Assembly (NCBI GenBank): GCA_013375475.1 | Contig: JABXKD010000002.1 | Span: 32,001 to 96,000, forward strand | From: Promethearchaeota archaeon | GTDB taxonomy: Archaea; Asgardarchaeota; Lokiarchaeia; Sigyniarchaeales; SOKP01 | Length of the DNA stretch: 64,000 bases | Reading direction: 5' to 3' | Shown here: piece by piece, positions 32,792 to 51,335 of the stretch | Layout of the letters: every line of letters begins with the position of its first letter | Numbering within the stretch: the first letter of the stretch is position 1 | The notes under the pieces: model-generated | Databases searched by the model: none | What the model saw: the letters and a program-made list of their open reading frames with translations, nothing else | Told to the model about the DNA's origin: nothing | Translations under genes and position numbers: made by a program

Positions 32792-34264
32792 TTAACCCTT
32801 TACAACCCCTATTGGAACCAATCTTACGATTTTTTCTACAATTCCAAGATCATGACTTACTTGCACTACTTGATCTATATCTTTATATGCCCCCGGAGCT
32901 TCTTCAGCAATAATTTTAGGAGAAGCAGCTTTTACCATAATTCCTCTATTTTTTAAATCTTCTTTGATTTTCGAACCCCAATATAGTTTTGTAGCCTTAG
33001 ACCTTGACATTACTCGACCAGATCCATGAGCGGTAGATCCAAAAGAAAGATCCATGGCTTTTGGTCTCCCAACGCACAGATAGGAAGCCGATCCCATAGT
33101 ACCTGGGATTAAAGCAGGTTGACCAATAGCTTTATAATCAATAGGCAGATCTGGATGCCCTGGTGGAAACGCTCTAGTCGCCCCTTTTCTGTGAACATTT
33201 AACTTCATTTTTTTTCCGTTTACTTCATGTTCTTCAATCTTTAAAATATTATGGCAAACACCATAAATCAAATTAAAATCCAGACCGTCTATACTCTTTT
33301 TAAAATGCTCTTGGAAAGATTCTCGTAGCCAATGCGTAATTAATTGACGATTATTAAAACCAAAATTTGCCGCACATGCCATGCTTTGTAAATATTTTAC
33401 TGCTTCTGGAGTATTAGCTGGAACACACGCCAATTCTCGATCTGGAACTTTAATTTTATATTTTTTCATTGCCTGCTCGACATTTCGCAAAGAATCTGTG
33501 CATACTTGATGACCAAGAGCTCGAGAGCCAGTATGAACCATGACTGTTACTTGACCTTTATTAAAAATTCCTAGTTTTTTAGCAATACTTTCGTTAAAAA
33601 TTGTATCTACTTTTTGAATTTCAAGAAAATGATTACCACTTCCCAACGAACCTAATTGCTTTATCGCTCTTTGTTTAGCTTTTTGGGATATTAATGTCGA
33701 ATCGGCGTTTTTCAAAAATCCATTTTCTTCACAATGTTCAATGTCTTCTTTAATTGCATAGTCATTTTCAAACGCCCAATTTAAGCCATTATCCAAAACT
33801 TCGTCTAACTCTGAATAATTTATGTTCAATTTTCCCTTACTTCCTAATCCTGATGGAATATTGTGAAAAATAGTGCTTAATAAACTCGGAATCGATTTTT
33901 TTACTTCTTCAAATTGAAGATTTGTTCTTAACAATCGTACACCGCAATTTATATCATAACCTACTCCTCCCGGTGAGATCATGCCTGTCTCGGCATCTGT
34001 TCCAGCAACACCTCCTATACAAAACCCATAACCTTGATGAGCATCAGAAAGAGCGATAGCGTGCTTCTGAATGCCGGGGAGACACGCAACATTACAAATT
34101 TGATCAAGCGTTCTGTCATTTTTAATCTTTTCTAAGATGTAATCGTTAGCATAAATATGCACAGGCACATTCATTTGAAATTTTTCGATTTTACCTTCTA
34201 CTCGCGCCATTAATGCTTTTTGCGGAATTTCATAGATGTTATCGGCAACTTTATTCACATTCAT
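32792..34264 (-). CDS. rtcB: RNA-splicing ligase RtcB
   Basis: DAHQGYG, GYDINCG, GSGNHFLE, HTGSR, HRKGAT, HGSGR. Confidence 0.97.
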   Translation of the reverse strand: MNVNKVADNIYEIPQKALMARVEGKIEKFQMNVPVHIYANDYILEKIKNDRTLDQICNVACLPGIQKHAIALSDAHQGYGFCIGGVAGTDAETGMISPGGVGYDINCGVRLLRTNLQFEEVKKSIPSLLSTIFHNIPSGLGSKGKLNINYSELDEVLDNGLNWAFENDYAIKEDIEHCEENGFLKNADSTLISQKAKQRAIKQLGSLGSGNHFLEIQKVDTIFNESIAKKLGIFNKGQVTVMVHTGSRALGHQVCTDSLRNVEQAMKKYKIKVPDRELACVPANTPEAVKYLQSMACAANFGFNNRQLITHWLRESFQEHFKKSIDGLDFNLIYGVCHNILKIEEHEVNGKKMKLNVHRKGATRAFPPGHPDLPIDYKAIGQPALIPGTMGSASYLCVGRPKAMDLSFGSTAHGSGRVMSRSKATKLYWGSKIKEDLKNRGIMVKAASPKIIAEEAPGAYKDIDQVVQVSHDLGIVEKIVRLVPIGVVKG

Positions 34265-34412
34265 ATTATCTGTACTAGTGATAACATTTTCATAAATCTT
34301 ATGATTAATCGTCTTAACACGATTTTAATCAATAAACTGAGAAAAAAGTGAATTTCTTTCTTATATCACATTAAAACTTTAAAAAACAAACTAAAAAACG
34401 CAAAAAGGGTGT

Positions 34413-35138
34413 TTATTTAATATCGATAAACTTTAAAAGACCTAGATCGTCCAAATCGTCAATGATGACATTAATCTCTGCCTTTGGTACGCCCGCTTCC
34501 TCAGCTATATCCGCTACGGTGTGAAATCCATCTGCTAAATGCGCGATTTTATATTGCTCCTTGTTTAGAAAGCCTTGTATAATCACTTGAGAGGGAAGGC
34601 GCTTCGATGTCCATACGGGCTTCTGGTTCTGAACCTTTCGTATATCTTCTTCCGAAAGAACTAATCCTTTCTTCTCAAGGAGCTTCTGGGATTTGAGAAA
34701 ATCCTTCTCAAAAATCTTCAATATAGGTATTTTTAGTGGAACCTCAGCAATTCTGCCATCTTTTAGAACTTTATCTATGAATTGTTCGAATCCCTTAAAA
34801 ATTCTAACATCCCCTGACCAATTGCTTATTATTTCACTAAAATTTACCGTAAACTTATCAATGATGTCACTCAAAGCTTTGTGTGTAATTTTTGCATCAT
34901 CATTCTTGTCTGCTGCTGCCGTACACAATATGCCATCTTTAAAAACCAACAATAAATAGAAAATTTGCATATCTATCACCTTCAATTCACCTGATCCTTT
35001 CGAAAATTCCACTGAGAAATCTTTAAGTGCCGTTAAAAATCCAGATACAAGATCTTGATTAAATTCAATTGTTCCATACTTTCTATGAATAAGGCAAATG
35101 CCTGTATGCTGATGAATAAGGTAAACATTGTGTAAAAT
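34413..35138 (-). CDS. Longin-domain protein with C-terminal winged helix; extended 42 codons beyond the ORF track to an ATT start
   Basis: In-frame upstream ILHNVYLIHQHTGICLIHRKYG...DLVSGFLTALKDFS is a typical longin N-terminus; C-terminal ADGFHTVADIAEEAG...LDDLGLL wHTH. Confidence 0.8.
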   Translation of the reverse strand: MLHNVYLIHQHTGICLIHRKYGTIEFNQDLVSGFLTALKDFSVEFSKGSGELKVIDMQIFYLLLVFKDGILCTAAADKNDDAKITHKALSDIIDKFTVNFSEIISNWSGDVRIFKGFEQFIDKVLKDGRIAEVPLKIPILKIFEKDFLKSQKLLEKKGLVLSEEDIRKVQNQKPVWTSKRLPSQVIIQGFLNKEQYKIAHLADGFHTVADIAEEAGVPKAEINVIIDDLDDLGLLKFIDIK

Positions 35139-35407
35139 AGTTCCTATAACACCTTTGAATGAGTATTTTTTTGGTATTTTTTACTAGTAAGATATTTTTA
35201 TTTATAATAACACTATAAATATTTATTAATTTGCTTTTAGGGAAATATAAAAATTTCTTTCTTTAGCTTCATTATTAATCGTACTTTTTGATAATTTATA
35301 CATAAATATTAAGAAATTTATATTTAGGAGTAAGAGCTGATTTCTTAAATAAATTGAAATTCATAATTGCATTATAAATTATTATTGAATATTATTAAGG
35401 GAATTAA

Positions 35408-35722
35408 ATGGATTATTATATTTTTTTAGTTACGGTTCCAAATATTGAAGAAGGTAAAAAAATAGCAAATCTCTTGGTTGAAAGTAAGTTAGCGGCGTGC
35501 GTTAACATAATTCAAAATGTAATTTCAATTTATAGATGGAAAGGAAATATAGAAAGAGAAAATGAAATGCTATTAATTATTAAGACCACTGAAAAAAAAT
35601 GCGATTCGATAATTCAAAAAGTCAGAGAAATTCATAGTTATTCGAATCCTGAATGTGTTGCTTTCAAAATCGAAAAAGGATCAGAAAAATATTTAGATTG
35701 GATTAAGGAAGTTGTAGATTAA
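35408..35722 (+). CDS. cutA: Divalent-cation tolerance protein CutA
   Basis: LAACVNI, SIYRWKG, HSYSNPE, YLDWI. Confidence 0.95.
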   Translation: MDYYIFLVTVPNIEEGKKIANLLVESKLAACVNIIQNVISIYRWKGNIERENEMLLIIKTTEKKCDSIIQKVREIHSYSNPECVAFKIEKGSEKYLDWIKEVVD

Positions 35723-35745
35723 TATAAAACCTATGTTTAAATATT

Positions 35746-36555
35746 ATGAGATTTAATATATTTCAAGTAGATTGGATTACCGTTGATATCATCATAATTA
35801 TATTATTACTTCTGCTGCTAATCGGAGTGAAGGTGTTTAAAGAGGCATATAGATGGAGATTTTTTTTTTCAAATGCTTCTACCATTCAGAGAGTTGATAA
35901 ACATCCGTATTTCAACGCTCAAATATCTCCTATTTTTATAAAGAAGTGCACATTGACCAAATCTAGCGTTTTTCAGCAAGATGATTTAACAAAACCAACA
36001 ATAGTCATGATAAGAAAACATCGAAAATTCATGCTTTTAAAAGCACTCACAGAAGCTTTTTGTTCTTTTGGATACGCTGTAATAAACATACAGCTAAAAA
36101 CTATACCTAATAATGAAACGAATAGAATAACTTCGAAAGCTGAAGAAGATTTCCATCAAACCATTCCCAATATTATAAAGTTTTATAATCACGATATTAA
36201 AACCGTGAATCAAGAATACAATATTATTGAATTTAGTAAAAATTTTTTTCCGTACAATCTTCTTTTAAAGGACTCAGCCTGTAAGAATCTAATTTTAATT
36301 AATCCTCGTTTAAAATCTAACGATTTAGAAGCAATTAAAACTTTAATAATGGATTCAAACAAGTATCCTCAATTAATTACTATATATAGTGAGAAATTAA
36401 ATCCAATATTAAAAAACAAGAAAGCTAAAAAAAATTTACTTAATAATGAAACATTTAAGAACACTAAACATACAATTATTCAAAAAGCTAAAAGTACTTT
36501 CAAGTATTACGAAACTATACTCTTAAGCATAATAATTGGATATATAGAGAATTAA
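35746..36555 (+). CDS. Membrane-anchored hypothetical protein, possibly a degenerate alpha/beta-hydrolase fold
   Basis: N-terminal TM; FGYAVINI and NLILINP strands without a GxSxG. Confidence 0.55.
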   Translation: MRFNIFQVDWITVDIIIIILLLLLLIGVKVFKEAYRWRFFFSNASTIQRVDKHPYFNAQISPIFIKKCTLTKSSVFQQDDLTKPTIVMIRKHRKFMLLKALTEAFCSFGYAVINIQLKTIPNNETNRITSKAEEDFHQTIPNIIKFYNHDIKTVNQEYNIIEFSKNFFPYNLLLKDSACKNLILINPRLKSNDLEAIKTLIMDSNKYPQLITIYSEKLNPILKNKKAKKNLLNNETFKNTKHTIIQKAKSTFKYYETILLSIIIGYIEN

Positions 36556-36576
36556 TATCAAAATTATTAAAATCTC

Positions 36577-37284
36577 ATGAAAAAAACCAAAATTTTAAGA
36601 GATTATTCTAATATCGTTGTATATTCTAAAATTCACTTGAAAATATTACAGGAAAAAAGAGAACGCTCTAAATTTCTTTTGGATATGTTCGTTAAAGAGG
36701 GTTTGAATCCATTTATATATGGTAGTATTGCTCGAGGCGATATTCATAAAGATAGTGATATAGATATTGTTCTTGTACAATCAATAGCTCCATATCAAGT
36801 CGAGATTATACTTGATAGACATGGTTACAATAATTATTTTAGAGAAATTATAATGGCAACACCTGCTGATACCGTAAAACTCTACATATACTTAAACGAG
36901 TTAGAGAGTATTACAATTCCATTATCTAAATTTGACAAAAAATCAAAAGAATTTTATGATTTTGGAGGGAAAATCAACTTAGACCAAATATATAATAATA
37001 TTAGAGTGCCTGGAATCGATAAAAGGTTAGTATTGATTCAACCCATTAGTAACGGATATAAAGAATCTTCGATTATTGGAAACGAACATTTAGCAGCAAG
37101 GCAATTAAATGTTAGCATTGATTTGATTAATGAAAGAAAAAGAGTCCTATTAAAGAGAGAAAAATTCGGAAAAACTGGTGTATTTTTAAAGAGACAAATT
37201 GAAATGAACGAAAGTACCGAAGATGTGTTAAAAAAATTAATTAAGAAAAATTCGATTGCGAGAAAAAAGTTGATATCACGATGA
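36577..37284 (+). CDS. Archaeal nucleotidyltransferase domain protein
   Basis: YGSIARGDIHKDSDIDI, EFYDFGG, RVPGIDKRL, GKTGVF. Confidence 0.85.
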   Translation: MKKTKILRDYSNIVVYSKIHLKILQEKRERSKFLLDMFVKEGLNPFIYGSIARGDIHKDSDIDIVLVQSIAPYQVEIILDRHGYNNYFREIIMATPADTVKLYIYLNELESITIPLSKFDKKSKEFYDFGGKINLDQIYNNIRVPGIDKRLVLIQPISNGYKESSIIGNEHLAARQLNVSIDLINERKRVLLKREKFGKTGVFLKRQIEMNESTEDVLKKLIKKNSIARKKLISR

Positions 37285-38432
37285 GAGCGCCAGTGATTGT
37301 AGAATCGAAAGCAAACACATTTTACTTAAAGAAGAAAGGAATTTCTAAAGGATGTCAGCAGTGTTTAAGGGGTACTAAAGCAGTATTATTTCTTAATGGA
37401 ATCTGTCAAAATCCAAGACATTGTTGGTGGTATTGTCCGATCTCTAAAAAACGAAAAGGAAAGAAAGATACTTACATAAATGAGATCAAAATATCTTCTA
37501 AAGAACAGATACTACAAGAACTCAAAGCTATTAACGCCAAAGGAATTAGTATTACGGGCGGGGACCCATTATTTGAGCCAAACTTAAAAAAGACATTGGA
37601 ATACATTAAGTTTATTAAAGAAAACAAAGGTAGTAAGTTTCACATTCACTTATATACTAACGGTCTTAATTTTAACGAAGAAATTGCTAAAAAACTCGCT
37701 CAAGCGGGTTTAGACGAAATTAGGTTCAACCCATCAAAAGAAAATTGGGATGTGATAAAATACGCCTTAAATATGGGTATTTCTGTAGGAGCTGAAGTTC
37801 CTGTAATTCCAGAAGTGGAATATATTGACAATTTGAAAAATAAAATTGTTTACTTGAATGAAATCGGTGCAGATTTTATTAATTTGAATGAATTTGAGTA
37901 TTGCTCACCAAACAGCCAAAACCTCAAGGATCGAAATTTTAAGTTAGAGTCAGGCACAATTGCATCCGTGGAGAATAGTAAAAAATGCGCAATTCAACTT
38001 GTTAAAGATGTCGCTCCAAAAGTTTCAATAAAAATTCACTTTTGCACGATTAAAGCTAAGGACTATTGGCAGTTGAAAGAAAGATATTTAAGGCGAGCAA
38101 AAACGATTAAATTGCCGTATGAACAAGTTACGAGTGAAGGTTTACTATTATTTGCTCAAATAGAAGGAGAGAAAAAGGACATTAAAGAATTTTATACTAT
38201 TTTATTAAATGAAATAAATATCCCGAAGAAATTTTTATCCTACCAAGAAACGAATATTAAATTATCAATAGCATTTGCTATTGAGGAAACATTAATAGAT
38301 TTATTAACTCAAAAAAATTTAAAAGGATACGCTGTAGAAATGACCCCGTTTCGAGAAGAAAAACACCAACAAATAACGGAAAAAACACCAATTATGTTAT
38401 TCAAAGAAGAGATGGGCTTAAATGAGAATTGA
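37281..38432 (+). CDS. Radical SAM protein (conserved archaeal family)
   Basis: KGCQQC, CQNPRHCWWYC, ITGGDP, HLYTNG, GLDEIRF, FINLNEFE. Confidence 0.88.
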   Translation: MRAPVIVESKANTFYLKKKGISKGCQQCLRGTKAVLFLNGICQNPRHCWWYCPISKKRKGKKDTYINEIKISSKEQILQELKAINAKGISITGGDPLFEPNLKKTLEYIKFIKENKGSKFHIHLYTNGLNFNEEIAKKLAQAGLDEIRFNPSKENWDVIKYALNMGISVGAEVPVIPEVEYIDNLKNKIVYLNEIGADFINLNEFEYCSPNSQNLKDRNFKLESGTIASVENSKKCAIQLVKDVAPKVSIKIHFCTIKAKDYWQLKERYLRRAKTIKLPYEQVTSEGLLLFAQIEGEKKDIKEFYTILLNEINIPKKFLSYQETNIKLSIAFAIEETLIDLLTQKNLKGYAVEMTPFREEKHQQITEKTPIMLFKEEMGLNEN

Positions 38433-38868
38433 CACAGTTGAACTTAAAGACTTAGATGAAATTTACAATTTGGAAAGAAAATTTTTCAAGAAAGATGCTT
38501 TTTCAAAAGATTTAATTTTTAATTTGATTATGAAGAATTTTTTTTTTTTTAAGCTGATTGATGGAGAATTATCAAATGAAATTATTGGATTCATCATAAT
38601 TATTCAGGATCGAGAGGATAGAGTAAATTTGATTAATTTTTTAATCAGAAAACGCAACCAAAATAAGGGCTGCGGAACTTACCTTTTGAGCTATACAATA
38701 AAGAAAGTTAAAAAAATGCCTAATATAAAAACAATTGTTTTGAACGTGAACTCCAAAAATAAAGTAGCTATAAAATTGTATCAGAAATTTAACTTCCGAA
38801 TCGTTCAGAAAATTGAAAACTACTATCGGCAAAAGGAAGGCGCCTACTTAATGGTTTTGAACATTTAA
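38422..38868 (+). CDS. RimI/Ard1-like GNAT N-acetyltransferase
   Basis: QNKGCG, NKVAIKLYQKFNF, NYY...AYLM. Confidence 0.88.
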   Translation: MRIDTVELKDLDEIYNLERKFFKKDAFSKDLIFNLIMKNFFFFKLIDGELSNEIIGFIIIIQDREDRVNLINFLIRKRNQNKGCGTYLLSYTIKKVKKMPNIKTIVLNVNSKNKVAIKLYQKFNFRIVQKIENYYRQKEGAYLMVLNI

Positions 38869-38977
38869 TCTTTTTCTAAAAACCAAGACTTATAAATAAA
38901 TTCTATTATAAATTTTGTACAGAACGCATTGATAATGTGCTCAAAAAAGGAAACAAAATTATAAATATTGAGTGATT

Positions 38978-39133
38978 ATGATGTCCTTAGGTGACGAATT
39001 AAAAGAACAAATAAAAAAAGGTGTGACTCTCCAAAAGGTTGACGAGGCAGACATGAAACAACGTGAAGAAGAGAAAAAGAAACGAATGGAAGAATTAGAA
39101 AAAGTAAAAGCAGCCTTAGGAGCAAAAGATTAA
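38978..39133 (+). CDS. 51-aa micro-protein with a WH2-like motif and charged helix (below the ORF-track cutoff)
   Basis: MMSLGDELKEQIKKGVTLQKVDEADMKQREEEKKKRMEELEKVKAALGAKD; fills an intergenic gap, upstream TTATAAA and GTGA, downstream T-tracts. Confidence 0.75.
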   Translation: MMSLGDELKEQIKKGVTLQKVDEADMKQREEEKKKRMEELEKVKAALGAKD

Positions 39134-39279
39134 ATTTTTTATGTTTTTCGTATTTTATTATTTTTTTTCTTTATATTTTGTAAGAAGACAGACTTAGATA
39201 CTATTTATCTTCTTGTTTATACTATACTTATTTATACAAGTTAATTATGCAAATTTGAAATTGGGAGTCTGTTATACCG

Positions 39280-40353
39280 TTGAAAATTCTGGAAATAGAT
39301 AAAAAGAACGAAAAAGTGTCTGTAAGGACTGAAGATTTAAACGATTTATGGACGCTATATAATCTTATTGATAAAAATGACGAAGTTTCAGCAAGAACTA
39401 ACAGAAGGATTGTGTTAAAGGAAGGCTCTAAGGGAGAAAGAAAACAAATGAATTTAATACTAAATGTTGAATCTGTCTCTTTCCACGAATTTACAAGTAG
39501 ATTAAGGGTAAAAGGAACTATATTAGAAGGTCCAGACGATTTCGTCACTTATGGGACATATCATACGTTCAATATAGAACCTGGACAAAAGTTAACAATA
39601 AAGAAGACTAAGTGGTTAAAGAGCGAAATAAAAAGCCTTAAAAAACCATCCACTTTCAAAGCAGATTTTAATATGTTAATGATAGCAATCGAAACTGGAC
39701 TAGCCACTATAGCTCTAATAACAAATTTTAGTCATAATAGGATTGCTACTATTAAAAAAAATATACCTGGTAAAAGATATGAGCAATCATTTAGAAATAA
39801 AGCTTATGAAGAATTTTTTAGTGATATAAATAGAATTTTAATCGAAAATATAAAAAGCGTTAAGATAAATACTATAATAATTTGTGGTCCTGGAAGCACG
39901 AAGGAACGTTTTAATCAATTTATTATCGAGAAAGCCCAAATTCCCAATCTTCCAAAAATTTATTGCATTCAAGCTAGCTCTGGAACAGAAAGTGCTATTT
40001 TAGAAACCTTGAAATCGAAAGAACTAAAAAGCTTAAAGGAAAATGTAAAGGTTCTGCTGGAAACTGAGAAAATTGAAGAAATAATGCAATTATTTGCTAC
40101 AAATTCCGACCTTATAGCTATTGGATTTAACGAGATCTCTCACGCAATTGAAAAAGGTGCTGTAAAAGATTTGTTTTGCGCCGATATTTTAATAAGAGGA
40201 GCTTCGAAAGAAAAAAAATTACAAATCGAGAGTATTTTAAACGGAGTTGAAAAAGTAGGTGGAATTATTCACATCTTAAGTAGTGAACACCCAACTGGGC
40301 AACAGATAATTGATTTGGGGTCTCTCGTTGCAATTTTAAGGTATAAAATTTAA
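39280..40353 (+). CDS. pelA: mRNA surveillance protein Pelota
   Basis: DLWTLYNLI, RLRVKG.I..GP, GTYHT, HPTGQQI...AILRY. Confidence 0.94.
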   Translation: MKILEIDKKNEKVSVRTEDLNDLWTLYNLIDKNDEVSARTNRRIVLKEGSKGERKQMNLILNVESVSFHEFTSRLRVKGTILEGPDDFVTYGTYHTFNIEPGQKLTIKKTKWLKSEIKSLKKPSTFKADFNMLMIAIETGLATIALITNFSHNRIATIKKNIPGKRYEQSFRNKAYEEFFSDINRILIENIKSVKINTIIICGPGSTKERFNQFIIEKAQIPNLPKIYCIQASSGTESAILETLKSKELKSLKENVKVLLETEKIEEIMQLFATNSDLIAIGFNEISHAIEKGAVKDLFCADILIRGASKEKKLQIESILNGVEKVGGIIHILSSEHPTGQQIIDLGSLVAILRYKI

Positions 40354-40383
40354 AACACCTAAACATATAATATCTCTCTAATA

Positions 40384-41421
40384 ATGAATGAAAACATTGA
40401 ATACATAGATGCTAAATCAGATATACCCTTAATGGGGGTAGATTTTCTTGGTGTAATTGATAGAGGGACTAATGTTATAGAGCTTAAACCTCTTACGATG
40501 TGCAATTTGCGATGCAAGTATTGTTTTGTCAGTTCTGGTGATTATAACACTAATTTTGTCGTTAATTCATATCACTTAGTTGAAAAGGTTAAAGAAATTG
40601 TTAAAATAAAGGGAAATCATGACCTCGAAATTCATCTTGCGCCGTATGGTGAAATGCTCCTTTATAATGAATTACCTGAACTACTAAAAAGCCTTTCAGA
40701 AATCACAGGTGTGTCGACTGTATCTATGCAAAGCAATGGTTTGTTGCTTTCGAAAAATATTATTGAAAAATTAAAAAAGAACGATCTTACAAGAATTAAC
40801 ATCAGCCTAAATAGTTTAAAAGAGGAAACTGACTGTTATCTTTGTAATTGTACACATTACGATGTGAATAGGCTTTTAGGAAATATATATACTCTTTTGA
40901 ATAGCAACATTCAAGTTCTGATTGCACCAGTTTGGTTTCCAGGAGAAAATGAAAAGGACATTGAAGAAATAATAGAATTAGTCCTAAAATTAAGACGTGA
41001 GGGCTTTTCTAAACAGCAAATTCAAATTGGCATTCAAAAATATTTAATCTATAAGACGGGTAGAACATTAAAAAAAATAAAACCAAAATCGTGGGGTTAT
41101 TTTTATTTACAATTGTCAAGGTTAGAAAAAAGGTACGGAATCAAATTGAAACTTGGACCAAAAGATTTTGGCATTCATAAGAGACCTCAAGTTTCCACTT
41201 TCGGTCTTAAAAGAGGAGACCTGATCAAAATCAAAATCGTCTCAAGGGGAAGATGGATGAATGAGTGTATAGGAAAAATCAACGGTAGTCATGGAATTAA
41301 AGTTTTATTGAGAAAACCAATAATTTTTTCCGAAGAACTAATAGGAAAAGTTATAGTAGCAAAAATTATTAAAGCAAATTATCGAGATAATATACTTACT
41401 GCTCTATTTCCTTATAATTAG
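40384..41421 (+). CDS. Radical SAM protein with C-terminal beta domain
   Basis: GVIDRGTNVIE, CNLRCKYC, MQSNG, RINISL. Confidence 0.88.
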   Translation: MNENIEYIDAKSDIPLMGVDFLGVIDRGTNVIELKPLTMCNLRCKYCFVSSGDYNTNFVVNSYHLVEKVKEIVKIKGNHDLEIHLAPYGEMLLYNELPELLKSLSEITGVSTVSMQSNGLLLSKNIIEKLKKNDLTRINISLNSLKEETDCYLCNCTHYDVNRLLGNIYTLLNSNIQVLIAPVWFPGENEKDIEEIIELVLKLRREGFSKQQIQIGIQKYLIYKTGRTLKKIKPKSWGYFYLQLSRLEKRYGIKLKLGPKDFGIHKRPQVSTFGLKRGDLIKIKIVSRGRWMNECIGKINGSHGIKVLLRKPIIFSEELIGKVIVAKIIKANYRDNILTALFPYN

Positions 41422-41507: not shown

Positions 41508-42140
41508 TTGATTATTATGAGCCCTATAATTACGCATGAAGACGAACTAGAACTTGCCAGTATGGAGAAGGAACTAGTATCCCAAATAAAAAAATTAGCG
41601 AAAGCTCAGAGCACTCTAATTGATTCTCAAAAAAGTTATGCTGACAATTTAAGAAAAGCAAATTTAGCTCGAGATATGTTGAATAGAACTTTTAGAGATG
41701 TATTGAAACAAATGCAAACTCTAGTAAGAGAAAGAAGGTCTAATATTAAAGACGAGGAAGTAAAGTTTTTTCAAGACATAATCCACAAAAACGACGAATA
41801 CATAATTACAAATAACAAATATATCGATTCGATTAAAGATCTTGCTATTAAAAAAGATTATTTAGTAGTAAAGAAAAATGAATTTGCTTCAGCATTAAGT
41901 GATGTAGCAAGTAAGCGAAGTGTGGTCATTAAAAAAGCCTTATCTGTCGAAAAAAAGAAGAACGATTTAATTGAAGGAGAAAAAATTAAAATCTTAGAAT
42001 CCGAATTGAATGATCTTCAGAGAGATTTTGATCGCGCACGGGATGTATTACTAAAAAAAATTAGTCAATTTTTGCAAGTTAAAAACGAAGTAGATGATCT
42101 CTGGATTAATTTAAAAAACTCCGTTAATAAATCTAGCTAA
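41508..42140 (+). CDS. All-helical coiled-coil protein, possibly BAR-like
   Basis: About 205 aa of three long amphipathic helices with a Lys-rich turn. Confidence 0.65.
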   Translation: MIIMSPIITHEDELELASMEKELVSQIKKLAKAQSTLIDSQKSYADNLRKANLARDMLNRTFRDVLKQMQTLVRERRSNIKDEEVKFFQDIIHKNDEYIITNNKYIDSIKDLAIKKDYLVVKKNEFASALSDVASKRSVVIKKALSVEKKKNDLIEGEKIKILESELNDLQRDFDRARDVLLKKISQFLQVKNEVDDLWINLKNSVNKSS

Positions 42141-42275
42141 GAGTAATCTTTTTTTTTTAATTTTATTTTTTAATTCATTGTAATGTATGAGCTTAAATTT
42201 ATTAAATAGGTCAAATATATAATTATTAGAAAATTTTCTAGGATAAATCGTTTTAATTAAAATCGAGAGAGTAAA

Positions 42276-42716
42276 ATGGCAGAAGAATTCGCAAATTTCA
42301 TGCAAGAAACTAAAAAAGCTCCACTTGAAGAAAAATTAAACGCTTTTGGAGATATAGTTGAAAGGATGATGTCTGTAATCTTAAGGATACCCGATTTAGT
42401 AGATCAGTCATTAGCAGGCGTCGCACAAAGAATATCAACATTAGAATCACGAATTACTACTATGAATAATGAAGTTTCTGCACTAAGAACACGAGGGACG
42501 GGAGCGTCTCCCGTTATCGCAGCACCTTCAGCCCCTGCTAGCGCACCGCCTCCATCAGCAGGACCCCCTGGTGGACCCCCTGGTGGACCCCCTGGTGGAC
42601 CCCCGTCTCCGCCTGGAGGACCTGGAGGGCCACGTCCAGCAAGTCCAGTGAGTTTGAGAGGCGCTATAATGGGCGAATTAAAGCAGCTATTTTCAAAAAG
42701 AAATCAATCAGGATAA
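42276..42716 (+). CDS. Coiled-coil plus polyproline plus C-terminal amphipathic helix protein
   Basis: RISTLESRITTM coiled coil, (GPPG)n tract, SLRGAIMGELKQLFSKR. Confidence 0.8.
   Translation: MAEEFANFMQETKKAPLEEKLNAFGDIVERMMSVILRIPDLVDQSLAGVAQRISTLESRITTMNNEVSALRTRGTGASPVIAAPSAPASAPPPSAGPPGGPPGGPPGGPPSPPGGPGGPRPASPVSLRGAIMGELKQLFSKRNQSG
42561..42604 (+). repeat. 12-bp tandem repeat GGACCCCCTGGT, about 3.7 copies, encoding GPPG
   Basis: Three perfect copies plus 8 bp. Confidence 0.92.
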
Positions 42717-42892: not shown

Positions 42893-44641
42893 TTGGTATA
42901 TTCAGTGCAGCAATCATCAATTAAGGACTCAGCAGTCACTCACGTAAAAATTGCTCATGATTTTCAAAAACAAATATTAGAAATCCCCTCTCTCATTAGA
43001 GTCATAAATAACTACTATTATAATAAATCTGTTGTACAAGCGAAATTGAAACCTTTAAAGCTAAAAAGGTTTAAAGAAGGGATAACAACTATAGAAAATG
43101 ATAAGCAAAGGCTTAATATTCTTCCCACTGCTTTAAATGCATTAAGAGGAGACTTACTACATAAAAGAGATACTTTTCGATTTCCTGATAGCATGATATT
43201 ATTTGAAGCTTGGATGAATTTGGGAATTGATGCATTGTATCCTAGATTAGCATTACATTATAAATTTCCCGGACTCTTAAAAGGTGAAAAAACACGACAT
43301 GTTTTCCAATTCACATTTTCGACATCTCGAGGCTTTGGTTTCCCCATTTATTTTGGACCCGAATTTTATGGGTATTTCTTAACTATTGGTAAAATATTAG
43401 AATCATTATTTAAATGGAGCCATACAATCTGTCATAGAGCTAATCAAGCAATATTTTTAGTTGGTAAGAGATATGGGATTAAAAGGCACCATCCCGGAGA
43501 ATTTGAATCAGTGATTATTTCAGAATACGAAAATCATATGTTTAAAGGAACCGATACTCTTTTACACGGTTACTTTACTCAAGATCCAAAAAATCTCGGT
43601 ATCTACTCAAATTTAGATGAGACTCTTAAAAATATAATGTTTTCATATTCTATCGGAGATCATGCCATGAATATCGACAAAAAAATTCAGGAACCGTCAA
43701 TAAAAATCCCTCTAATGACTCACGATTACATAGTAAAGACCTACAATGTCAATTTTTATAAATATTTAAAGAACCTAATATCGATGAAAAACCTTTTAAT
43801 TAAGAAGATTCTACTATACAAAAAACTAAGAAAAGAATATATTAATAATCTGAAAAGAATTGAAAGAATAAAATTCAGAATTGATCAATCTAAAACTGTT
43901 TCTATTCCAAAATTGAAACTTTCTCAACGCTATTCCAAGATTCAAGAATATTCCCTTCACATTAAGCTTATGGAACAACTTATAGAGATGTTATGGACTT
44001 CACCGCTCTATTCTCATACTATTCATTATACCATAAATGAGGATCCTGATCTTAAAAAGACTACAGTAAACAGCTCTACAGCCAATTTTGATAATAAATC
44101 TATAAATTCAATATTTTTATCATATGTTACACATTTTGAGGAAAATAATAAATTTATTTTTAAAGAATTTGAAGTCTTAGATGAGTTGGAGAAAATTAGT
44201 GATACTATGGGAACGATGTGGCTATATTTTAAAGAAAAACATTTTAACTTTGCCTTAAATAAATTGAACGAGCTTTCAACATTATCGTTAGTAAATCAGG
44301 ATTATAATAAGATCGTAAACGATTATGTTAATAATCTTATCCCAATTTTCTCAATTTATGAGATTTTTAATAGATCTCTCTCAGAGTCTGTTTATCCAGA
44401 ATCCATTCCTCAAACCAAACGATTAGGAGCTTACATAGCAAGTTTTCTTACTTCGAGATTTAACCCTTTTGGTGTGAATTTAATGAACCTTTTCAATAAA
44501 TTAGCGTTTTACAACTGGAGCTACTTTATTGTAAAAAGAGACCTTAATCAAACTCGATTTTTCAATATTATCTTTAAACTTCCAATATGGAAGTATATCC
44601 CTAATAATATTACAAAAAAAATATTAGACTCTAAAAATTAA
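42893..44641 (+). CDS. Hypothetical protein, 582 aa
   Basis: Long ORF, no motif recognised. Confidence 0.7.
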   Translation: MVYSVQQSSIKDSAVTHVKIAHDFQKQILEIPSLIRVINNYYYNKSVVQAKLKPLKLKRFKEGITTIENDKQRLNILPTALNALRGDLLHKRDTFRFPDSMILFEAWMNLGIDALYPRLALHYKFPGLLKGEKTRHVFQFTFSTSRGFGFPIYFGPEFYGYFLTIGKILESLFKWSHTICHRANQAIFLVGKRYGIKRHHPGEFESVIISEYENHMFKGTDTLLHGYFTQDPKNLGIYSNLDETLKNIMFSYSIGDHAMNIDKKIQEPSIKIPLMTHDYIVKTYNVNFYKYLKNLISMKNLLIKKILLYKKLRKEYINNLKRIERIKFRIDQSKTVSIPKLKLSQRYSKIQEYSLHIKLMEQLIEMLWTSPLYSHTIHYTINEDPDLKKTTVNSSTANFDNKSINSIFLSYVTHFEENNKFIFKEFEVLDELEKISDTMGTMWLYFKEKHFNFALNKLNELSTLSLVNQDYNKIVNDYVNNLIPIFSIYEIFNRSLSESVYPESIPQTKRLGAYIASFLTSRFNPFGVNLMNLFNKLAFYNWSYFIVKRDLNQTRFFNIIFKLPIWKYIPNNITKKILDSKN

Positions 44642-45626: not shown

Positions 45627-46733
45627 TTGGGTATGGAGCACACGAATTTGTCAATTGAACATGATAAAATCTTGATAGAGAAGGTTCTTGACGATATCGA
45701 TATGAGATATATCGTTTTATTTCTCTATATCATTAGAAACGATTTATTTAGGGATTTAAATAATACAGAACTAATTGAATCATACGAGAAAGTACTAATT
45801 TTAGATGAAATTTTTAAAGATAATATCCTAAACTTCTGGGATAATGAATTTATAGAAGTAGCTGTTGATTTAGGCTTATTTAAAAACATTCGAAGTATGA
45901 GAGAGTTTCAACAAAAAGAGGACGATTTCATAATTCGGTTAGGAGAAGAAACAGTAACTATAGAAAATGACACAATATCCGTACCAGATCATTCATTATT
46001 CTTAATGATAAATAAGAAATTTAAGTTTCTTACACGACGGAATTTTAACTCAGCTTTAATAAAATTGAAGGGAGTAAGGTGTCAAACAAGTAATATAATC
46101 CACCCGTTTGTCTCTGAAATAGGAGATAATGATTTCACAATTCCCGATGATATTTACTACATTTTAGATCAGTATGGTAATATTTATCAAGCAATTAAGA
46201 TAGAAATTACAATCGAAGGGATCTATCAAAGATTTTTGGAAATCCAAGAAAAAATTAATGAATTTATCGATATTTTCGAGCCTAAATTAAGAACAAAACC
46301 GGTTTTAAAGAAAGTACATGAAGCTATAAATGACAAAAAAGATATCATCAAATATTTGAAAGATGAAAAAATAGAACTCCCTGATAAATTTGCCTATAAT
46401 GAAAATGATATCGAAAATTTAACTTTTAAAGATTGGAATTCTAAATTGATTCTATTATTGAAATATACATTTGAAATACAGCAAATAGAGACTAAACTTT
46501 TAGAAATTAAGAAATATTATTCAGGAAAGAGTAAAAACTTTAATTATCTTGAATTTATTGAGAAAGTGTCTTTTAATGAAGATAATATCGTAAATTCTAT
46601 TCAAAGTGCTTTAATAAAACTTAGAGAAGAACTATTAGAAACTAATAATGAACTTGAACAACTAACGAAAAAAGATTTAAAATTATTAAATTTAGATTTT
46701 GAAAGATACTTAATAACGAGTCGTGATGATTAA
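45627..46733 (+). CDS. Hypothetical protein with C-terminal helical/coiled-coil region; first gene of an 8-gene cluster
   Basis: Long acidic ORF, 2 nt from the next gene. Confidence 0.7.
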   Translation: MGMEHTNLSIEHDKILIEKVLDDIDMRYIVLFLYIIRNDLFRDLNNTELIESYEKVLILDEIFKDNILNFWDNEFIEVAVDLGLFKNIRSMREFQQKEDDFIIRLGEETVTIENDTISVPDHSLFLMINKKFKFLTRRNFNSALIKLKGVRCQTSNIIHPFVSEIGDNDFTIPDDIYYILDQYGNIYQAIKIEITIEGIYQRFLEIQEKINEFIDIFEPKLRTKPVLKKVHEAINDKKDIIKYLKDEKIELPDKFAYNENDIENLTFKDWNSKLILLLKYTFEIQQIETKLLEIKKYYSGKSKNFNYLEFIEKVSFNEDNIVNSIQSALIKLREELLETNNELEQLTKKDLKLLNLDFERYLITSRDD

Positions 46734-46735
46734 TC

Positions 46736-47692
46736 ATGAAATGCACAGCATGTAGCATCGAAATGGAAGTTTTAGTTCCTGGAATTTACCAATGTCCTCA
46801 ATGTAAAAAAATACAAAAACAAAAAGATGACAAACGCGAGGAAGACGAAGAAAAGAAAGTTGAAAGTGGTCAATTTCTTGACGGAGAATACTTCCATAAG
46901 AACGCAAGTCTTAATAAAAAATATGAAATATCTGAAAAGGGAATAATCATCAGTAAATCTGAAACGCGTTTATTTGCTACCTTGATTTGCCATAGTGCTT
47001 ATTTAACAGATGAAAAATACGTAAGACTGTCATGGTGGAAAAGTTATCAACATGCTGGTATGTTTAAAATCTACGATAAAGAAGTTTTGAAAAATGTTAT
47101 TACAGCGTTAGAAAAAGTTAATGAAAGCTTCGACGATTTTTGGACGTGGAGTGGAAAGTACGGAAAACAGGAACCTAAGTCAAATGAGATCATAGAAAAA
47201 GAGAAACATTTAGACCTTCTCAAATACCGGATAATTGAAAACCGAACATGTCCAAAATGTCAAAAAAAAATGAAGAAAGAAAAATCTCATTACGAGTGCC
47301 AAAACTGTGGCGAGATAGTTATCCTCGAAGGTTACAATCAACCTATCTTCAACATATCGTCTGAAGAACTTGAATTAACTTTTCAAACTAACTTCCCTAT
47401 TAATTATTATATGCCAGTAAGCGGTATTACTGTGAAATGGCTAATGGGGGAATGGAAGGCATTAGCAGTTATTCATTCTAAAGATAACCCCAATAAAAAA
47501 TGGCTCAGGTTTTATTGGTGGATAAGAGATTTAAGTAATGTTTTAAAATATGGGCAAAGAGAGATAGGAGAAGGTACACAAATGGGCTGGAAAACACAAA
47601 GAGGAGTAGCTTCTCCAAATATTTATGACAGAAAGGTAATAATTCCTTTAATTAAAGCGCTACAGAAAATACAGGAAGATTTAAATTGGTAA
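46736..47692 (+). CDS. Protein of two repeats, each a zinc ribbon plus a Trp-rich beta domain
   Basis: CTAC...CPQC and CPKC...CQNC; KYVRLSWW versus KWLRFYWW. Confidence 0.75.
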   Translation: MKCTACSIEMEVLVPGIYQCPQCKKIQKQKDDKREEDEEKKVESGQFLDGEYFHKNASLNKKYEISEKGIIISKSETRLFATLICHSAYLTDEKYVRLSWWKSYQHAGMFKIYDKEVLKNVITALEKVNESFDDFWTWSGKYGKQEPKSNEIIEKEKHLDLLKYRIIENRTCPKCQKKMKKEKSHYECQNCGEIVILEGYNQPIFNISSEELELTFQTNFPINYYMPVSGITVKWLMGEWKALAVIHSKDNPNKKWLRFYWWIRDLSNVLKYGQREIGEGTQMGWKTQRGVASPNIYDRKVIIPLIKALQKIQEDLNW

Positions 47693-47717
47693 CAAATAAA
47701 AATAAACGGAATCTTTA

Positions 47718-48866
47718 GTGATGATAATGGAAATTGGTCAAGATAATACATGGAAAGAATTACTTCAAAACTTTGAAACAGGATTAGAAAAAGCCGTAGA
47801 AGAAGTAGAAAAAAGAGATGTAGAAACCATTCCAGGGGCAAAAGAAGCTTTAATTCAAAGATTAAAAAATATGAAGCTCCATTTTCCTAAGAATAACGGT
47901 GAAATATTTCTAAAATCTATTAACGATACAATTCAAAATACATTTTTTCCAAATACAAAGGATTTTACTGAAGCATTTAAAAAAATAATAAAATCTAGAA
48001 CCCATGAACAAGATTTCATTATAAATGAGTTATTAAATGGATTTGTGACATCAAAAGCGAAAGCTATTGCTTCAGGAACTCAAGGACCGATAATAGATAG
48101 GATGGTAGAAGCTTTTAGCAAAAGAAATGATTTTCATATTGTCGATTATCAGTTTTATGCAATGTTTGGAGATCCTAATAAACCTCGTCATTATATTAAA
48201 AACCAGCTTGAAGAGCTTGCTAAATTGTTTGGTTTGGTTTCCAGGGAACTCGTAGTTGAAAAAGATATTAGGAAAAGTGAAGAAAAAGTTTACACATTTT
48301 ATACCTTTCCGGAAAGCATTATTAAAATTCTTGAAGAAAAATATTTAATAATTGATGAAGAATTAGGTTATGCATATGTATCTGAAGCCTTTGATCGAAA
48401 TGTGTTCATTTGTATGTTTTTAGCTAACATCGCAATTAATAGAGATAATCTTGATAAAATTGGAGGATCCTTCACTCTCAATGGCATCTCAGCAATTTTT
48501 GCTTTGATTTTATTATTGAGTTTTTTACCTAAATTATCCGTTGATGAAACAAGCCCTATATTAAACGATCCTAGTTATGATCCAGATAACATGAGCGTGA
48601 TTCCAAAATCGTGGATGATGAGGCAAGTTTTAGAACCCCTCTTCGAACCCTTGATTAAAATTATCGCTTACAGGTTAGGAGGAGGTTTGTGGCTATCAAA
48701 AATAATAGATTCCGAAATCAATAAAAAAATTCACAACCAGATACGCTTTTTGATTAAAGATGTTAATAAGTGGGTGTTAGGGCAATTAGTTAGAGTTGAA
48801 ATTCCCATTTTCGTGGAAATTTCAAATATCTTTACAGAAATTTTAGTAGGATATGATGACAGTTAA
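47718..48866 (+). CDS. Hypothetical protein, 382 aa
   Basis: Long ORF in the operon. Confidence 0.7.
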   Translation: MMIMEIGQDNTWKELLQNFETGLEKAVEEVEKRDVETIPGAKEALIQRLKNMKLHFPKNNGEIFLKSINDTIQNTFFPNTKDFTEAFKKIIKSRTHEQDFIINELLNGFVTSKAKAIASGTQGPIIDRMVEAFSKRNDFHIVDYQFYAMFGDPNKPRHYIKNQLEELAKLFGLVSRELVVEKDIRKSEEKVYTFYTFPESIIKILEEKYLIIDEELGYAYVSEAFDRNVFICMFLANIAINRDNLDKIGGSFTLNGISAIFALILLLSFLPKLSVDETSPILNDPSYDPDNMSVIPKSWMMRQVLEPLFEPLIKIIAYRLGGGLWLSKIIDSEINKKIHNQIRFLIKDVNKWVLGQLVRVEIPIFVEISNIFTEILVGYDDS

Positions 48867-48871
48867 AATTA

Positions 48872-50200
48872 ATGATTAATTTGGTGAACCTTATGAGTTA
48901 TAAAAAAAAAGGCACAAGAAATGTGAAACCTGGTAGAAAGAGGGAAAAATGGACTGATATACTCCCTAGATATCTTACATTCTTAACTCATATGCGACCT
49001 ATCCTCAGAGAAACGAGGAGAGTAATAATTGGTCTAGATGCGGATCTTTTGCTAGACACTGAAATTCTAGATAAAATTCGAGAAGAAGAAGAAAAAAGGA
49101 ATGTAAGGAAGGTAAGAGCTTTAACAGAATTTTCAGCGATGTATAGATCAAATATATACGAAATCATAAAAGATTTTTTAGTAAAATATAGAGATCGGAT
49201 TCCAATCCTAGATATTAAAGATTATATTATTGAGTTCTTATACGAATCCGTAGGTGCACTTAATGTTTTACAACACATTACTAATCCAGACGAACAAAAC
49301 TTAGAAAACACATATTTGTATGTTTTAGTTAAATTTATTGAAGAAAAACTTCTCCCGCGAGGAAGAAATTTAAAGGTCATATATAAAAAATTACTAGAAG
49401 TATCGCCCGATTTTTACGATTGCCAACGGCATATCCTCCAACCCCATACATATTATCGAGAAAAATTAGAAGATTCAGATTCCTTTGAGATTCCCGGAAT
49501 CTCTCCAAAAGTTTATCAAGTATTTAATAATATAACTTCTCTTTTTAATCTTGACCCAAACTTTGGAAATTTCCCTGAAAAAGAAAATCAAGAACTTCCA
49601 ATGATTTTAAAGACAGAGATTTTTAACCCATACATTGATTCCGTTGCAAATGCAGAAGAAGAAGCAATAGACCAAATTTCTGAACGCATTGGACTCCGGA
49701 TATTGGACGAAATTTTTCTCGCTCCAAGTGAAAATTTAGTAGAAATCATGATAGAAAATAATTTCATACGTAGCAATACACAATCGGACGGAGTAATAAG
49801 ATTATTACCGCAATTGAGTAATGAAACATTGTATTTACATTACTTAGCATTCGCATCCCAAAGAAGAGGTTTTTTATCAAAAGAACTAATAAACTGGATT
49901 TCAATGAATTTCGCTTTTTTGATTTATATGGGGATTTTGAAGTGGAAATTATCAGATCAAAACATTTTTTATCCCATTTTTAAAGATTTACAAACAAATG
50001 AGAAAATATTACCCTTCTTAATGAAACTTATCTGCTTTCCTAACTACTTAGGGTTAGATAAGATGAAAATTAGGGATTCCCCGCAATATAGAAAGGAAAT
50101 TTTTAACTTTATAGGTTCTCAAATTGATAATCTTAAAGAATTTATTAATGAAATAGCTATATATTGTGAAAAATTTGATAAAGAAAGAAAAAATAAATAA
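48872..50200 (+). CDS. Hypothetical helical protein, 442 aa
   Basis: Long ORF in the operon, basic N-terminus. Confidence 0.7.
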   Translation: MINLVNLMSYKKKGTRNVKPGRKREKWTDILPRYLTFLTHMRPILRETRRVIIGLDADLLLDTEILDKIREEEEKRNVRKVRALTEFSAMYRSNIYEIIKDFLVKYRDRIPILDIKDYIIEFLYESVGALNVLQHITNPDEQNLENTYLYVLVKFIEEKLLPRGRNLKVIYKKLLEVSPDFYDCQRHILQPHTYYREKLEDSDSFEIPGISPKVYQVFNNITSLFNLDPNFGNFPEKENQELPMILKTEIFNPYIDSVANAEEEAIDQISERIGLRILDEIFLAPSENLVEIMIENNFIRSNTQSDGVIRLLPQLSNETLYLHYLAFASQRRGFLSKELINWISMNFAFLIYMGILKWKLSDQNIFYPIFKDLQTNEKILPFLMKLICFPNYLGLDKMKIRDSPQYRKEIFNFIGSQIDNLKEFINEIAIYCEKFDKERKNK

Positions 50201-50216
50201 ATTACAATAAAATGAG

Positions 50217-51335
50217 TTGAGAAAAATTAACAGTTCGAAAGATAAAGTGGAAGATGAAATAACATTTTCAGACGAAGTTATTAAAAATAGAATAGGTAAA
50301 TATGGTGCAGTGTATTTTCCTTCCAATATTCAAGAGTCTATTGAAGACATCTTAGGTAATGAGACTAAAAAAGAAATTTTACATGATTTCTTTAAAGCTT
50401 TAAAGAAATATAATGAATTTACCAAACAGTTAAAAGGGTCAAAACTTAATCCCAGCTTAACTGTTCTTTTGTACGGACCACCTGGAACAGGCAAAACTTC
50501 TCTTACTCGAGGATTTTCAAAAGAATATGACATACCTTTGTGCGTGGTTGAAACTGATAGACTTGTATCTCCTTTACTAGGAGATACAATTAAACAAATT
50601 AGAAATGTTGTAGAACTTGCAGCTGAAATTGCTAAAGAGAGAGGAAGTTTTATTTTGTTTTTTGATGAAATTGATGCTATAGGGTCTGAGCGATCAAACA
50701 TTCACGAAGTTGGCGAAATTAAACGTGCTGTAATCTCGTTTTTACAAGTTATTGATAGGATCAATTATGAAGGAGTACCACTAGCCATTTTTGGAGCTAC
50801 AAATCATCAAAATCAATTAGACTCAGCTATATGGAGACGTTTCACCTTCCATTTTAGCTTTGAATTCCCTGATTATCATTTAAGAAAAAAAATAATTGAA
50901 TCGTTCCTTGATAAGGTTAAAAACGCAAAAATTGGGGTTGATGAATCAATTTATACCAATCTAAACGATGAATATGGAAGAATTCAAGGAATAAGTAATA
51001 ATTTAGAACACAAATTAGGTTATATTGTTTCAGAGTTTGAAGGCAATATATTATGGGACGAGCTTCATAAAAAAAGCGAAATGAAGGGGTTACTCGAATT
51101 ATCCAAGGGTTATTCAGGCTCAGATATAGAGAGAGGTACAAAAGTATCTCTGCTGAAAGCTATTAATACTGAACGTTTAACTTACGAACTTTTTTATAAT
51201 TCGCTAAAGTTAGTAGGAGGTACAGCAATCCATGTGGAAAGACAAGATGTGTTAAGCGATCGGAGGAATAAGGAAATAAACTCTAAAAGAATGGGAAATC
51301 GTAGTTCTAATTTTTCTGGTCCGCCAGAAATATAA
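50217..51335 (+). CDS. Classic-clade AAA+ ATPase, single domain
   Basis: [40 protein letters not shown]. Confidence 0.92.
   Translation: MRKINSSKDKVEDEITFSDEVIKNRIGKYGAVYFPSNIQESIEDILGNETKKEILHDFFKALKKYNEFTKQLKGSKLNPSLTVLLYGPPGTGKTSLTRGFSKEYDIPLCVVETDRLVSPLLGDTIKQIRNVVELAAEIAKERGSFILFFDEIDAIGSERSNIHEVGEIKRAVISFLQVIDRINYEGVPLAIFGATNHQNQLDSAIWRRFTFHFSFEFPDYHLRKKIIESFLDKVKNAKIGVDESIYTNLNDEYGRIQGISNNLEHKLGYIVSEFEGNILWDELHKKSEMKGLLELSKGYSGSDIERGTKVSLLKAINTERLTYELFYNSLKLVGGTAIHVERQDVLSDRRNKEINSKRMGNRSSNFSGPPEI

Follow-up and report, generated by a model that had tools for sequence, protein, structure and literature searches.

BRK1 (HSPC300), CCDC53 (WASHC3) and HSBP1, coiled-coil components of the WAVE and WASH complexes, are small proteins built on a single long oligomerising helix, to which CCDC53 adds a proline-rich stretch after the coil. 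The WH2 consensus comprises an amphipathic helix, a short linker and then an LKKV-type motif, and baculovirus P10 consists of a coiled coil, a proline-rich part and a basic end. The bacterial division proteins MinD, FtsA and FtsZ carry a C-terminal membrane-targeting helix or a linker plus peptide. To our knowledge, the route by which the small GTPases of Asgard archaea reach membranes or effectors is largely open. PMC12583498 describes Asgard proteins tethered by amphipathic helices at their termini and by C-terminal tails, including examples of C-terminal helix or linker arrangements.

We compared with these systems a 146-aa protein encoded on the + strand at 42276..42716 of the window, i.e., the whole stretch of 64,000 nucleotides that was analysed. 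An initial annotation had likened it to a miniature WAVE/WASH protein and proposed an oligomeric, profilin-recruiting precursor of nucleation-promoting factors. This reading is attractive but unsupported, and the present analysis corrects it: the protein belongs to an Asgard-specific family that has so far gone without a name.

The open reading frame begins with an ATG, and a word-indexed search of 90% clusters returned 197 relatives at E ≤ 0.01. Among the 120 matches listed of these 197, all source names read "hypothetical protein", from Lokiarchaeota, Thorarchaeota, Hodarchaeota or Promethearchaeota. An exhaustive search of 50%-identity representatives yielded 95 at E ≤ 0.001, and a family profile built from 47 diverse members found matches in 316 of 400 Asgardarchaeota genomes, including 77 of 90 in a high-quality set. 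Given these numbers of relatives, representatives and genomes, the gene is real, far beyond chance. Neither Pfam nor NCBIfam assigned the 146-aa protein to a family, a search of the protein Atlas returned unnamed Asgard clusters only, and our literature search found neither a description of the family nor, among the 15 papers listed of 182 matching ones, a mention of Asgard archaea together with BRK1, CCDC53 or HSBP1. Short metatranscriptome contigs from four runs of three studies lie on 42246-42602, with DNA carry-over being possible; this evidence consists of contigs only, and parts left uncovered carry no meaning. No such contig bridges the gene to its upstream neighbour. In two genomes of the same class (G126:C93:50703-51535 and G123:C457:2809-3590), the family gene is duplicated in tandem. 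Two contigs carrying the Asgard family gene (L005 and L128) are filed as 'Nanopelagicaceae bacterium' and 'bacterium', probably a binning or labelling error; one of the two also displays Loki-type synteny.

AlphaFold2, supplied with a 47-sequence alignment, predicts helices at residues 2-14, 17-74 and 127-145, the long central one (58 residues) with a pLDDT above 90, and leaves residues 77-124 disordered (pLDDT below 50). The prediction and the invariant alignment columns delimit the parts of the gene, all on the + strand. A short N-terminal helix with the conserved residues A2, E4, F5 and F8 (aa 2-14; 42279..42317) precedes aa 16-45 (42321..42410), the highly conserved first half of the long helix, which contains the invariant residues P16, K20, F24, G25, D26, I27, E29, M32, L36, I38 and D40 and is likely a docking surface. 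The remainder of this helix forms a variable heptad coiled coil (aa 46-74; 42411..42497, heptads assigned by eye), which is the coil that had been called 'SHD-like'. There follows a disordered spacer of Pro, Gly, Ala and Ser (aa 75-126; 42498..42653), recognisable by its low pLDDT and its composition, with 20 P, 12 G, 8 A and 7 S among the 51 residues of aa 76-126. The protein closes with a conserved basic amphipathic helix (aa 127-145; 42654..42710), whose core reads E-L-K-x-L-F and then K/R.

The elements named in the initial annotation are thus all present: the coil string covers aa 52-70, the Pro/Gly tract (given there as ~45 aa) comprises the 51 residues of aa 76-126, and the C-terminal helix string covers aa 127-142. 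The three-part layout is borne out, with a coil predicted to oligomerise, then a Pro-rich spacer and finally a conserved helix at the C-terminus, and there is indeed no acidic-Trp motif, the protein having no Trp and no acidic tail but a basic one. Judged by eye, hydrophobic residues between L17 and L70 recur every three to four positions, interrupted by a single four-residue stutter near aa 42-46, so that the coil singled out earlier is the second half of one long helix.

Where the family is constrained was read from an alignment of 34 orthologs (A1). Its near-invariant N-terminal block (aa 2-43) has invariant columns at A2, E4, F5 and F8 and at each of the long-helix positions from P16 to D40 given above. 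The C-terminal block is invariant at P121, P124, L127, R128, G129, A130, I131, E134, L135, K136, L138 and F139, the helix as a whole (aa 127-142) being near-invariant. From aa 44 to 96, N64 alone is near-invariant, which makes the coil likened to the WAVE homology domain the least constrained segment. Across the 47 diverse members, down to ~25% identity, K136 is invariant and E134, L135 and F139 are each kept in at least 90%. The same layout recurs in other GTDB families of the phylum with spacers that are ~40 to 130 residues long and enriched in P, A, S, T or Q, and spacer length and composition vary across the family. Conservation of the C-terminal helix equals that of Lokiactin, whose columns average 81% identity. 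The pattern of constraint therefore runs opposite to the WAVE reading, the coil being variable and both ends conserved. A poorly conserved C-terminal helix would have told against the initial annotation, but this helix ranks with the best-conserved segments; what does tell against it are the profile searches, which return generic coiled coils only.

Run against all PDB sequences, the family profile gave 117 matches at E ≤ 10, headed by trimeric adhesin and GCN4-fusion coils (best E 1.8e-4). Its top matches thus lean to trimeric coils; beta-branched residues at a and Leu or Met at d, positions read by eye here, would suit dimers. BRK1 (3p8c_E; E 0.37, 14 bits) ranked behind some fifty generic coiled coils, and the best 60 of the 117 matches included neither a WAVE nor a WASP chain. 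A Foldseek comparison with the PDB, one of the checks suggested at the outset, returned no match at E ≤ 10. When the 47 members were scanned with Pfam at E ≤ 1, the most frequent matches were to the C-terminus of baculovirus polyhedron envelope protein (Baculo_PEP_C, PF04513; 29/47) and to baculovirus P10 (NPV_P10, PF05531; 15/47), followed by CCDC53 (7) and HSBP1 (4; best E 0.0075). The two baculovirus matches are below the curated cut-offs and cover the coil only, and the likeness is one of composition, not kinship.

Could the protein nevertheless be genuinely homologous, if highly diverged, to the BRK1, CCDC53 or HSBP1 subunits or to the WAVE homology domain? The CCDC53 and HSBP1 matches and the presence of BRK1 in the PDB search would fit such descent. 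The best CCDC53 (PF10152) match, in P0211, reaches 24.6 bits, which is exactly the cut-off, and spans both the coil and the proline region. However, when the first 72 residues of P0211 were searched alone, CCDC53 was lost and fourteen generic coiled-coil families were left, HSBP1 among them at E 0.076; the CCDC53 match hence depends on the Pro-rich region. Likewise, BRK1 ranks below generic coils, the baculovirus families are matched more often than CCDC53 or HSBP1, the segment that would have to be homologous is the least conserved one, and Foldseek is silent. More generally, the matches to BRK1, CCDC53 and HSBP1 are no better than those to generic coils, depend on low-complexity proline and offer no counterpart of the conserved N-terminal segment and C-terminal helix of the Asgard family. 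The genome, estimated to be 100% complete, also yielded neither of two Arp2/3 subunits: the best ARPC2 match (19.9 bits) falls in a frame with three stops, and ARPC4 gave no match, although this model was silent in every control genome as well. We consider descent from these subunits highly improbable, and at the level of sequence the idea is largely refuted.

The more specific claims fare no better. No profile search supports aligning the coil 'position by position' with the WAVE helix, nor the resemblance of the tail to the WASP central helix or a WH2 helix. The WH2 model (PF02205) matched neither the 146-aa protein at E ≤ 1 nor any of 46 relatives at E ≤ 0.003, and the best 25 of the 121 Pfam families matched by the 47 members do not include it. 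Searched over the whole genome at E ≤ 1, it left the locus unmatched, its sole match being an unrelated frame on C255. Inspection by eye found no LKKV-type motif after the C-terminal helix; the conserved L-K lies inside the helix and is followed by x-L-F and K/R. With the coil least conserved, coiled-coil matches generic, WH2 unmatched and ARPC2 and ARPC4 not found, the proposed kinship with WAVE and WASH as an NPF precursor is not supported, and the 146-aa protein has no detectable relative in WAVE, WASH, BRK1 or CCDC53.

More informative are the proteins in which the family module is joined to other domains. While the family is present in most Asgard genomes, in some lineages it is fused to Arf/Rag-like GTPases, Ras-like GTPases or gelsolin domains. 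In P0146 (426 aa) and P0200 (399 aa), an Arf/Gtr1-RagA-like GTPase domain is followed by the entire module, i.e., helix, coil, spacer and C-terminal motif. The genome of the 146-aa gene itself encodes a 416-aa paralog of this kind on C244, in which a motif scan found the GTPase (Gtr1_RagA 78 bits, Arf 75.6 bits) and then the whole module. A genome scan with the 28-residue C-terminal peptide returned almost exclusively standalone orthologs and one 459-aa open frame, in G266, that ends in the C-terminal motif of the family. The N-terminal module alone stands behind Ras-like GTPases in P0158, P0182, P0214 and P0215, those of the latter two being 72-76% identical to the 146-aa protein, and a copy is also present in the gelsolin-bearing P0145. 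A search for longer homologs retrieved two Ras-fused proteins only, which counts as weak evidence. In P0215, P0145 and P0165, the N-terminal module is joined to a gelsolin domain; Pfam Gelsolin scores sub-threshold here (14.6-16.4 bits), and P0145 matches the solved Lokiarchaeota 2DGel structure 7whg_G at E 9e-11. Further combinations pair the module with leucine-rich repeats (P0172) or a winged helix (P0153).

A lineage-specific set of mosaic proteins (P0215, P0145, P0165, P0214, P0182 and P0133) combines Ras-like GTPase, N-terminal helix module and gelsolin domain, and these proteins have in common a C-terminal proline-rich peptide and a Cys4 Zn-ribbon tail. By tblastn, no Ras-gelsolin mosaic fusion was found in the genome of the 146-aa gene.

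The genomic surroundings of the standalone gene differ between close and distant relatives. In 80 related Loki-type loci, it sits within a long syntenic block together with a coiled-coil gene (upstream, 78/80) and genes for radical SAM (76/80), Elf1-like (72/80) and Pelota/eRF1-like (70/80) proteins, with GTPase or Roadblock neighbours in none of the 80. Since these neighbours are housekeeping genes, they tell little of function. Among 34 loci from more distant genomes of the phylum, assigned to other GTDB families, GTPase or Roadblock neighbours were found in six. In L187, the adjacent upstream gene is a Ras gene, and L085 and L182 have GTPase genes at a distance of two genes; V4R+Roadblock genes adjoin the family gene in L088 and L159 and are one gene further in L087. 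Genes connected with membrane lipids recur as well: the nine loci of family f31 all have the family gene between PIG-L and PGM/PMM, and in the four loci with that ORF scanned, a GT4 glycosyltransferase lies beyond PIG-L. A DedA/VTT gene is present within two genes in five scanned loci from four GTDB families, UbiA, PAP2 and BacA genes recur around distant orthologs, and PAP2 adjoins the fused GTPase paralog on C244 and is also near L087. As related genomes share synteny, none of these neighbour counts are independent.

Paralogs add to this picture. One of them, 115-136 aa long and encoded on C47, is built in the same way, and the gene immediately after it encodes a Roadblock/LC7 protein (59 bits). 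A class-wide search with this paralog found the main ortholog and no orthologs of the paralog itself; a related-locus search found its sole close relative elsewhere, on L128 (310-2167), where the paralog is followed by a Ras GTPase and then Roadblock. Fusion to, or adjacency with, GTPase or Roadblock genes is thus recurrent, being seen in the fusion proteins and at C47, L128, L085, L182, L187, L087, L088 and L159.

Several observations accompany these paralogs. On C47:3284-4079 (L125), the paralog and the Roadblock/LC7 gene form a tight same-strand cluster, and the Roadblock protein of L128 has a Zn-ribbon tail in common with the Ras-gelsolin fusion proteins. A more distant look-alike of 234 aa (C218:789-4614, L127) comprises an N-terminal helix, a ~150-residue proline-rich stretch and a similar C-terminal helix, and the next gene downstream encodes a PIG-L deacetylase. 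An actin-family gene 2 kb downstream of the look-alike encodes a 370-aa protein with 43% identity to Lokiactin.

The reading that we tentatively prefer, at somewhat less than an even chance, is that of an oligomeric tether or adaptor tied to small-GTPase systems, with the basic C-terminal helix as membrane anchor. The coil would assemble into parallel dimers or trimers, and the invariant N-terminal segment would dock a partner from small-GTPase or cytoskeletal systems. The spacer would act as a flexible leash, and the C-terminal helix would anchor the assembly, most likely on an acidic membrane surface. In the fused Arf/Rag-like GTPases, this helix might serve in the way that lipid or polybasic tails serve eukaryotic small GTPases. 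Support for a tether comes from the GTPase fusions of the whole module (P0146, P0200 and C244), from the Ras-like GTPase and gelsolin fusions of the N-terminal module and from the Ras and Roadblock neighbours of the paralogs and of some distant orthologs; against it count the low frequency of GTPase or Roadblock neighbours in the distant loci (six of the 34) and the housekeeping neighbours in the 80 Loki-type ones. The spread of the family and its GTPase and gelsolin fusions make it a candidate missing link between GTPase switches, membrane and cytoskeleton in the closest archaeal relatives of eukaryotes.

A tether of this kind resembles known ones in outline. With the helices of MinD and FtsA and the linker plus peptide of FtsZ, the family shares the sequence of a folded or oligomeric part, a variable disordered linker and a short conserved basic terminal helix; it differs in that there is no sequence relation and that its own helix has a modest hydrophobic moment and an invariant acidic residue. 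The hypervariable region of eukaryotic small GTPases is paralleled in the fused Asgard paralogs, where a flexible tail and a basic terminal helix come after the GTPase domain. In contrast to the eukaryotic proteins, a coiled coil intervenes between GTPase and tail and there is no lipidation motif, and the 146-aa protein lacks a GTPase domain altogether.

Two kinds of contact are conceivable for the C-terminal helix. On the Fauchere-Pliska scale, its hydrophobic moment is 0.32 in an 18-residue window, a value that 22% of shuffles of the same residues reach; the family means are 0.35 for the moment and +3.3 for net charge, the charge in the 146-aa protein being +3. A helical wheel drawn by eye places L127, I131, L135, L138, F139 and M132 on one face, flanked by K136, E134 and K141, with the variable positions (G/S/A, Q/E/T and S/A/N) opposite. 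Such a pattern fits a membrane-surface helix and a one-sided protein contact alike. For a membrane anchor count the position of the helix at the extreme C-terminus after a flexible linker, its charge, its hydrophobic face of L/I/L/L/F and the DedA/VTT, PIG-L and PAP2 neighbours; against it count the modest moment and the near-invariant E134 and K136. These two residues are better explained by a specific protein contact than by lipid binding. Lipid is favoured by the polybasic end, by the placement of the helix at the terminus beyond a leash and by the membrane-lipid genes nearby.

It is possible, if rather unlikely, that the helix is instead a peptide ligand of a conserved protein, with a Roadblock/longin dimer or a GTPase as candidates, and that the spacer works like the C-terminal linker of FtsZ with its terminal peptide. 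The retention of E134, L135, K136 and F139 across the 47 diverse members while the small polar face varies, the Ras and Roadblock genes in the paralog operons and the merely modest moment would all agree with a protein ligand, and there is an Asgard precedent in the recruitment of OdinFtsZ2 by SepF via its C-terminal tail, as described in PMC12583498. Yet the partners named are candidates only, and the polybasic end and membrane-lipid neighbours fit lipid binding equally well.

The relation to actin was considered separately from descent. With WH2 and Ena/VASP proteins, the family has in common a coil predicted to oligomerise and a short amphipathic helix that is conserved, to which many close homologs add proline runs; it differs from them in the missing WH2 profile match, the missing LKKV-type motif and proline runs that are not family-wide. 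Relative to VASP, moreover, the order of parts is reversed. The longest proline run in the 146-aa protein is three, and runs of at least five occur in 98 of 117 close homologs versus 15 of 54 distant representatives with the C-terminal motif, which makes polyproline a lineage trait and not a family trait. As for the profilins themselves, PMC8410842 reports those of Loki and Odin as non-binders of VASP polyproline and gives millimolar affinities for those of Heimdall and Thor. Given the patchy occurrence of proline runs and this report on the Loki and Odin profilins, the profilin recruitment envisaged in the initial annotation is doubtful. The one remaining connection to actin is indirect and comes from the N-terminal modules fused to gelsolin domains.

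These fusions nonetheless lend some colour to the idea of an actin assembly factor, functionally like an Ena/VASP or WH2 protein and unrelated by descent, in which the coil would oligomerise, the prolines would recruit profilin-actin and the C-terminal helix would bind actin. The proline runs of close homologs and a C-terminal helix as conserved as Lokiactin would suit such a factor, as would a Lokiactin co-immunoprecipitation in L. ossiferum that enriched an unnamed Arf GTPase, reported in 10.1101/2025.11.30.690169; according to the same work, profilins and gelsolins are the mainstay of actin regulation in Asgard archaea. Speaking against it are the silent WH2 model, the helix without a subsequent LKKV-type motif (by eye), the shortage of proline runs here and in distant members, the non-binding reported for Loki and Odin profilins, and the 80 Loki-type loci, in none of which the main ortholog has an actin, profilin or gelsolin gene as neighbour. 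We regard the idea as unlikely, and it would amount to a functional analogy only, with no sequence kinship. An elaborate version, namely an ancient, Asgard-wide and GTPase-coupled actin assembly factor whose oligomeric coil presents several proline-rich leashes and actin-binding C-terminal helices at the membrane, seems quite improbable. If true, such a factor would foreshadow Ena/VASP or WH2-type factors in function without being related to them in sequence, and the fused Arf/Rag-like and Ras-gelsolin versions would be its switchable forms.

Turning to the surroundings of the gene within the window, the coiled-coil gene upstream (41508..42140, + strand), which is next door in the 78 loci mentioned above and is given as context only, encodes a 210-aa protein that belongs to no Pfam or NCBIfam family. 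It was considered as a distant paralog and rejected (hhalign probability 2.5%). Further upstream, a block at 32792-41421 encodes an RtcB ligase, a MarR-like protein, a nucleotidyltransferase, two radical SAM proteins, a GNAT acetyltransferase and a Pelota/eRF1-like protein, all syntenic with the family gene in most Loki-type loci. Directly downstream lies a 582-aa ORF (42893-44641) with no Pfam or NCBIfam match, present in 58 of the 80 related loci; in loci without it, the Elf1-like gene follows the family gene after ~1 kb. At 45627-50200 and 50217-51335, four consecutive + strand genes (368, 318, 382 and 442 aa) precede an AAA ATPase. The four have no Pfam or NCBIfam family bar a weak Zn-ribbon match, and are syntenic in 64, 61, 56 and 25 of the 80 loci, respectively, the last count being limited by the available flanks. 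The best NCBIfam likeness of the AAA ATPase is to the anti-phage ATPase IteA (173.7 bits against a cut-off of 510), with CdvC at 82 bits.
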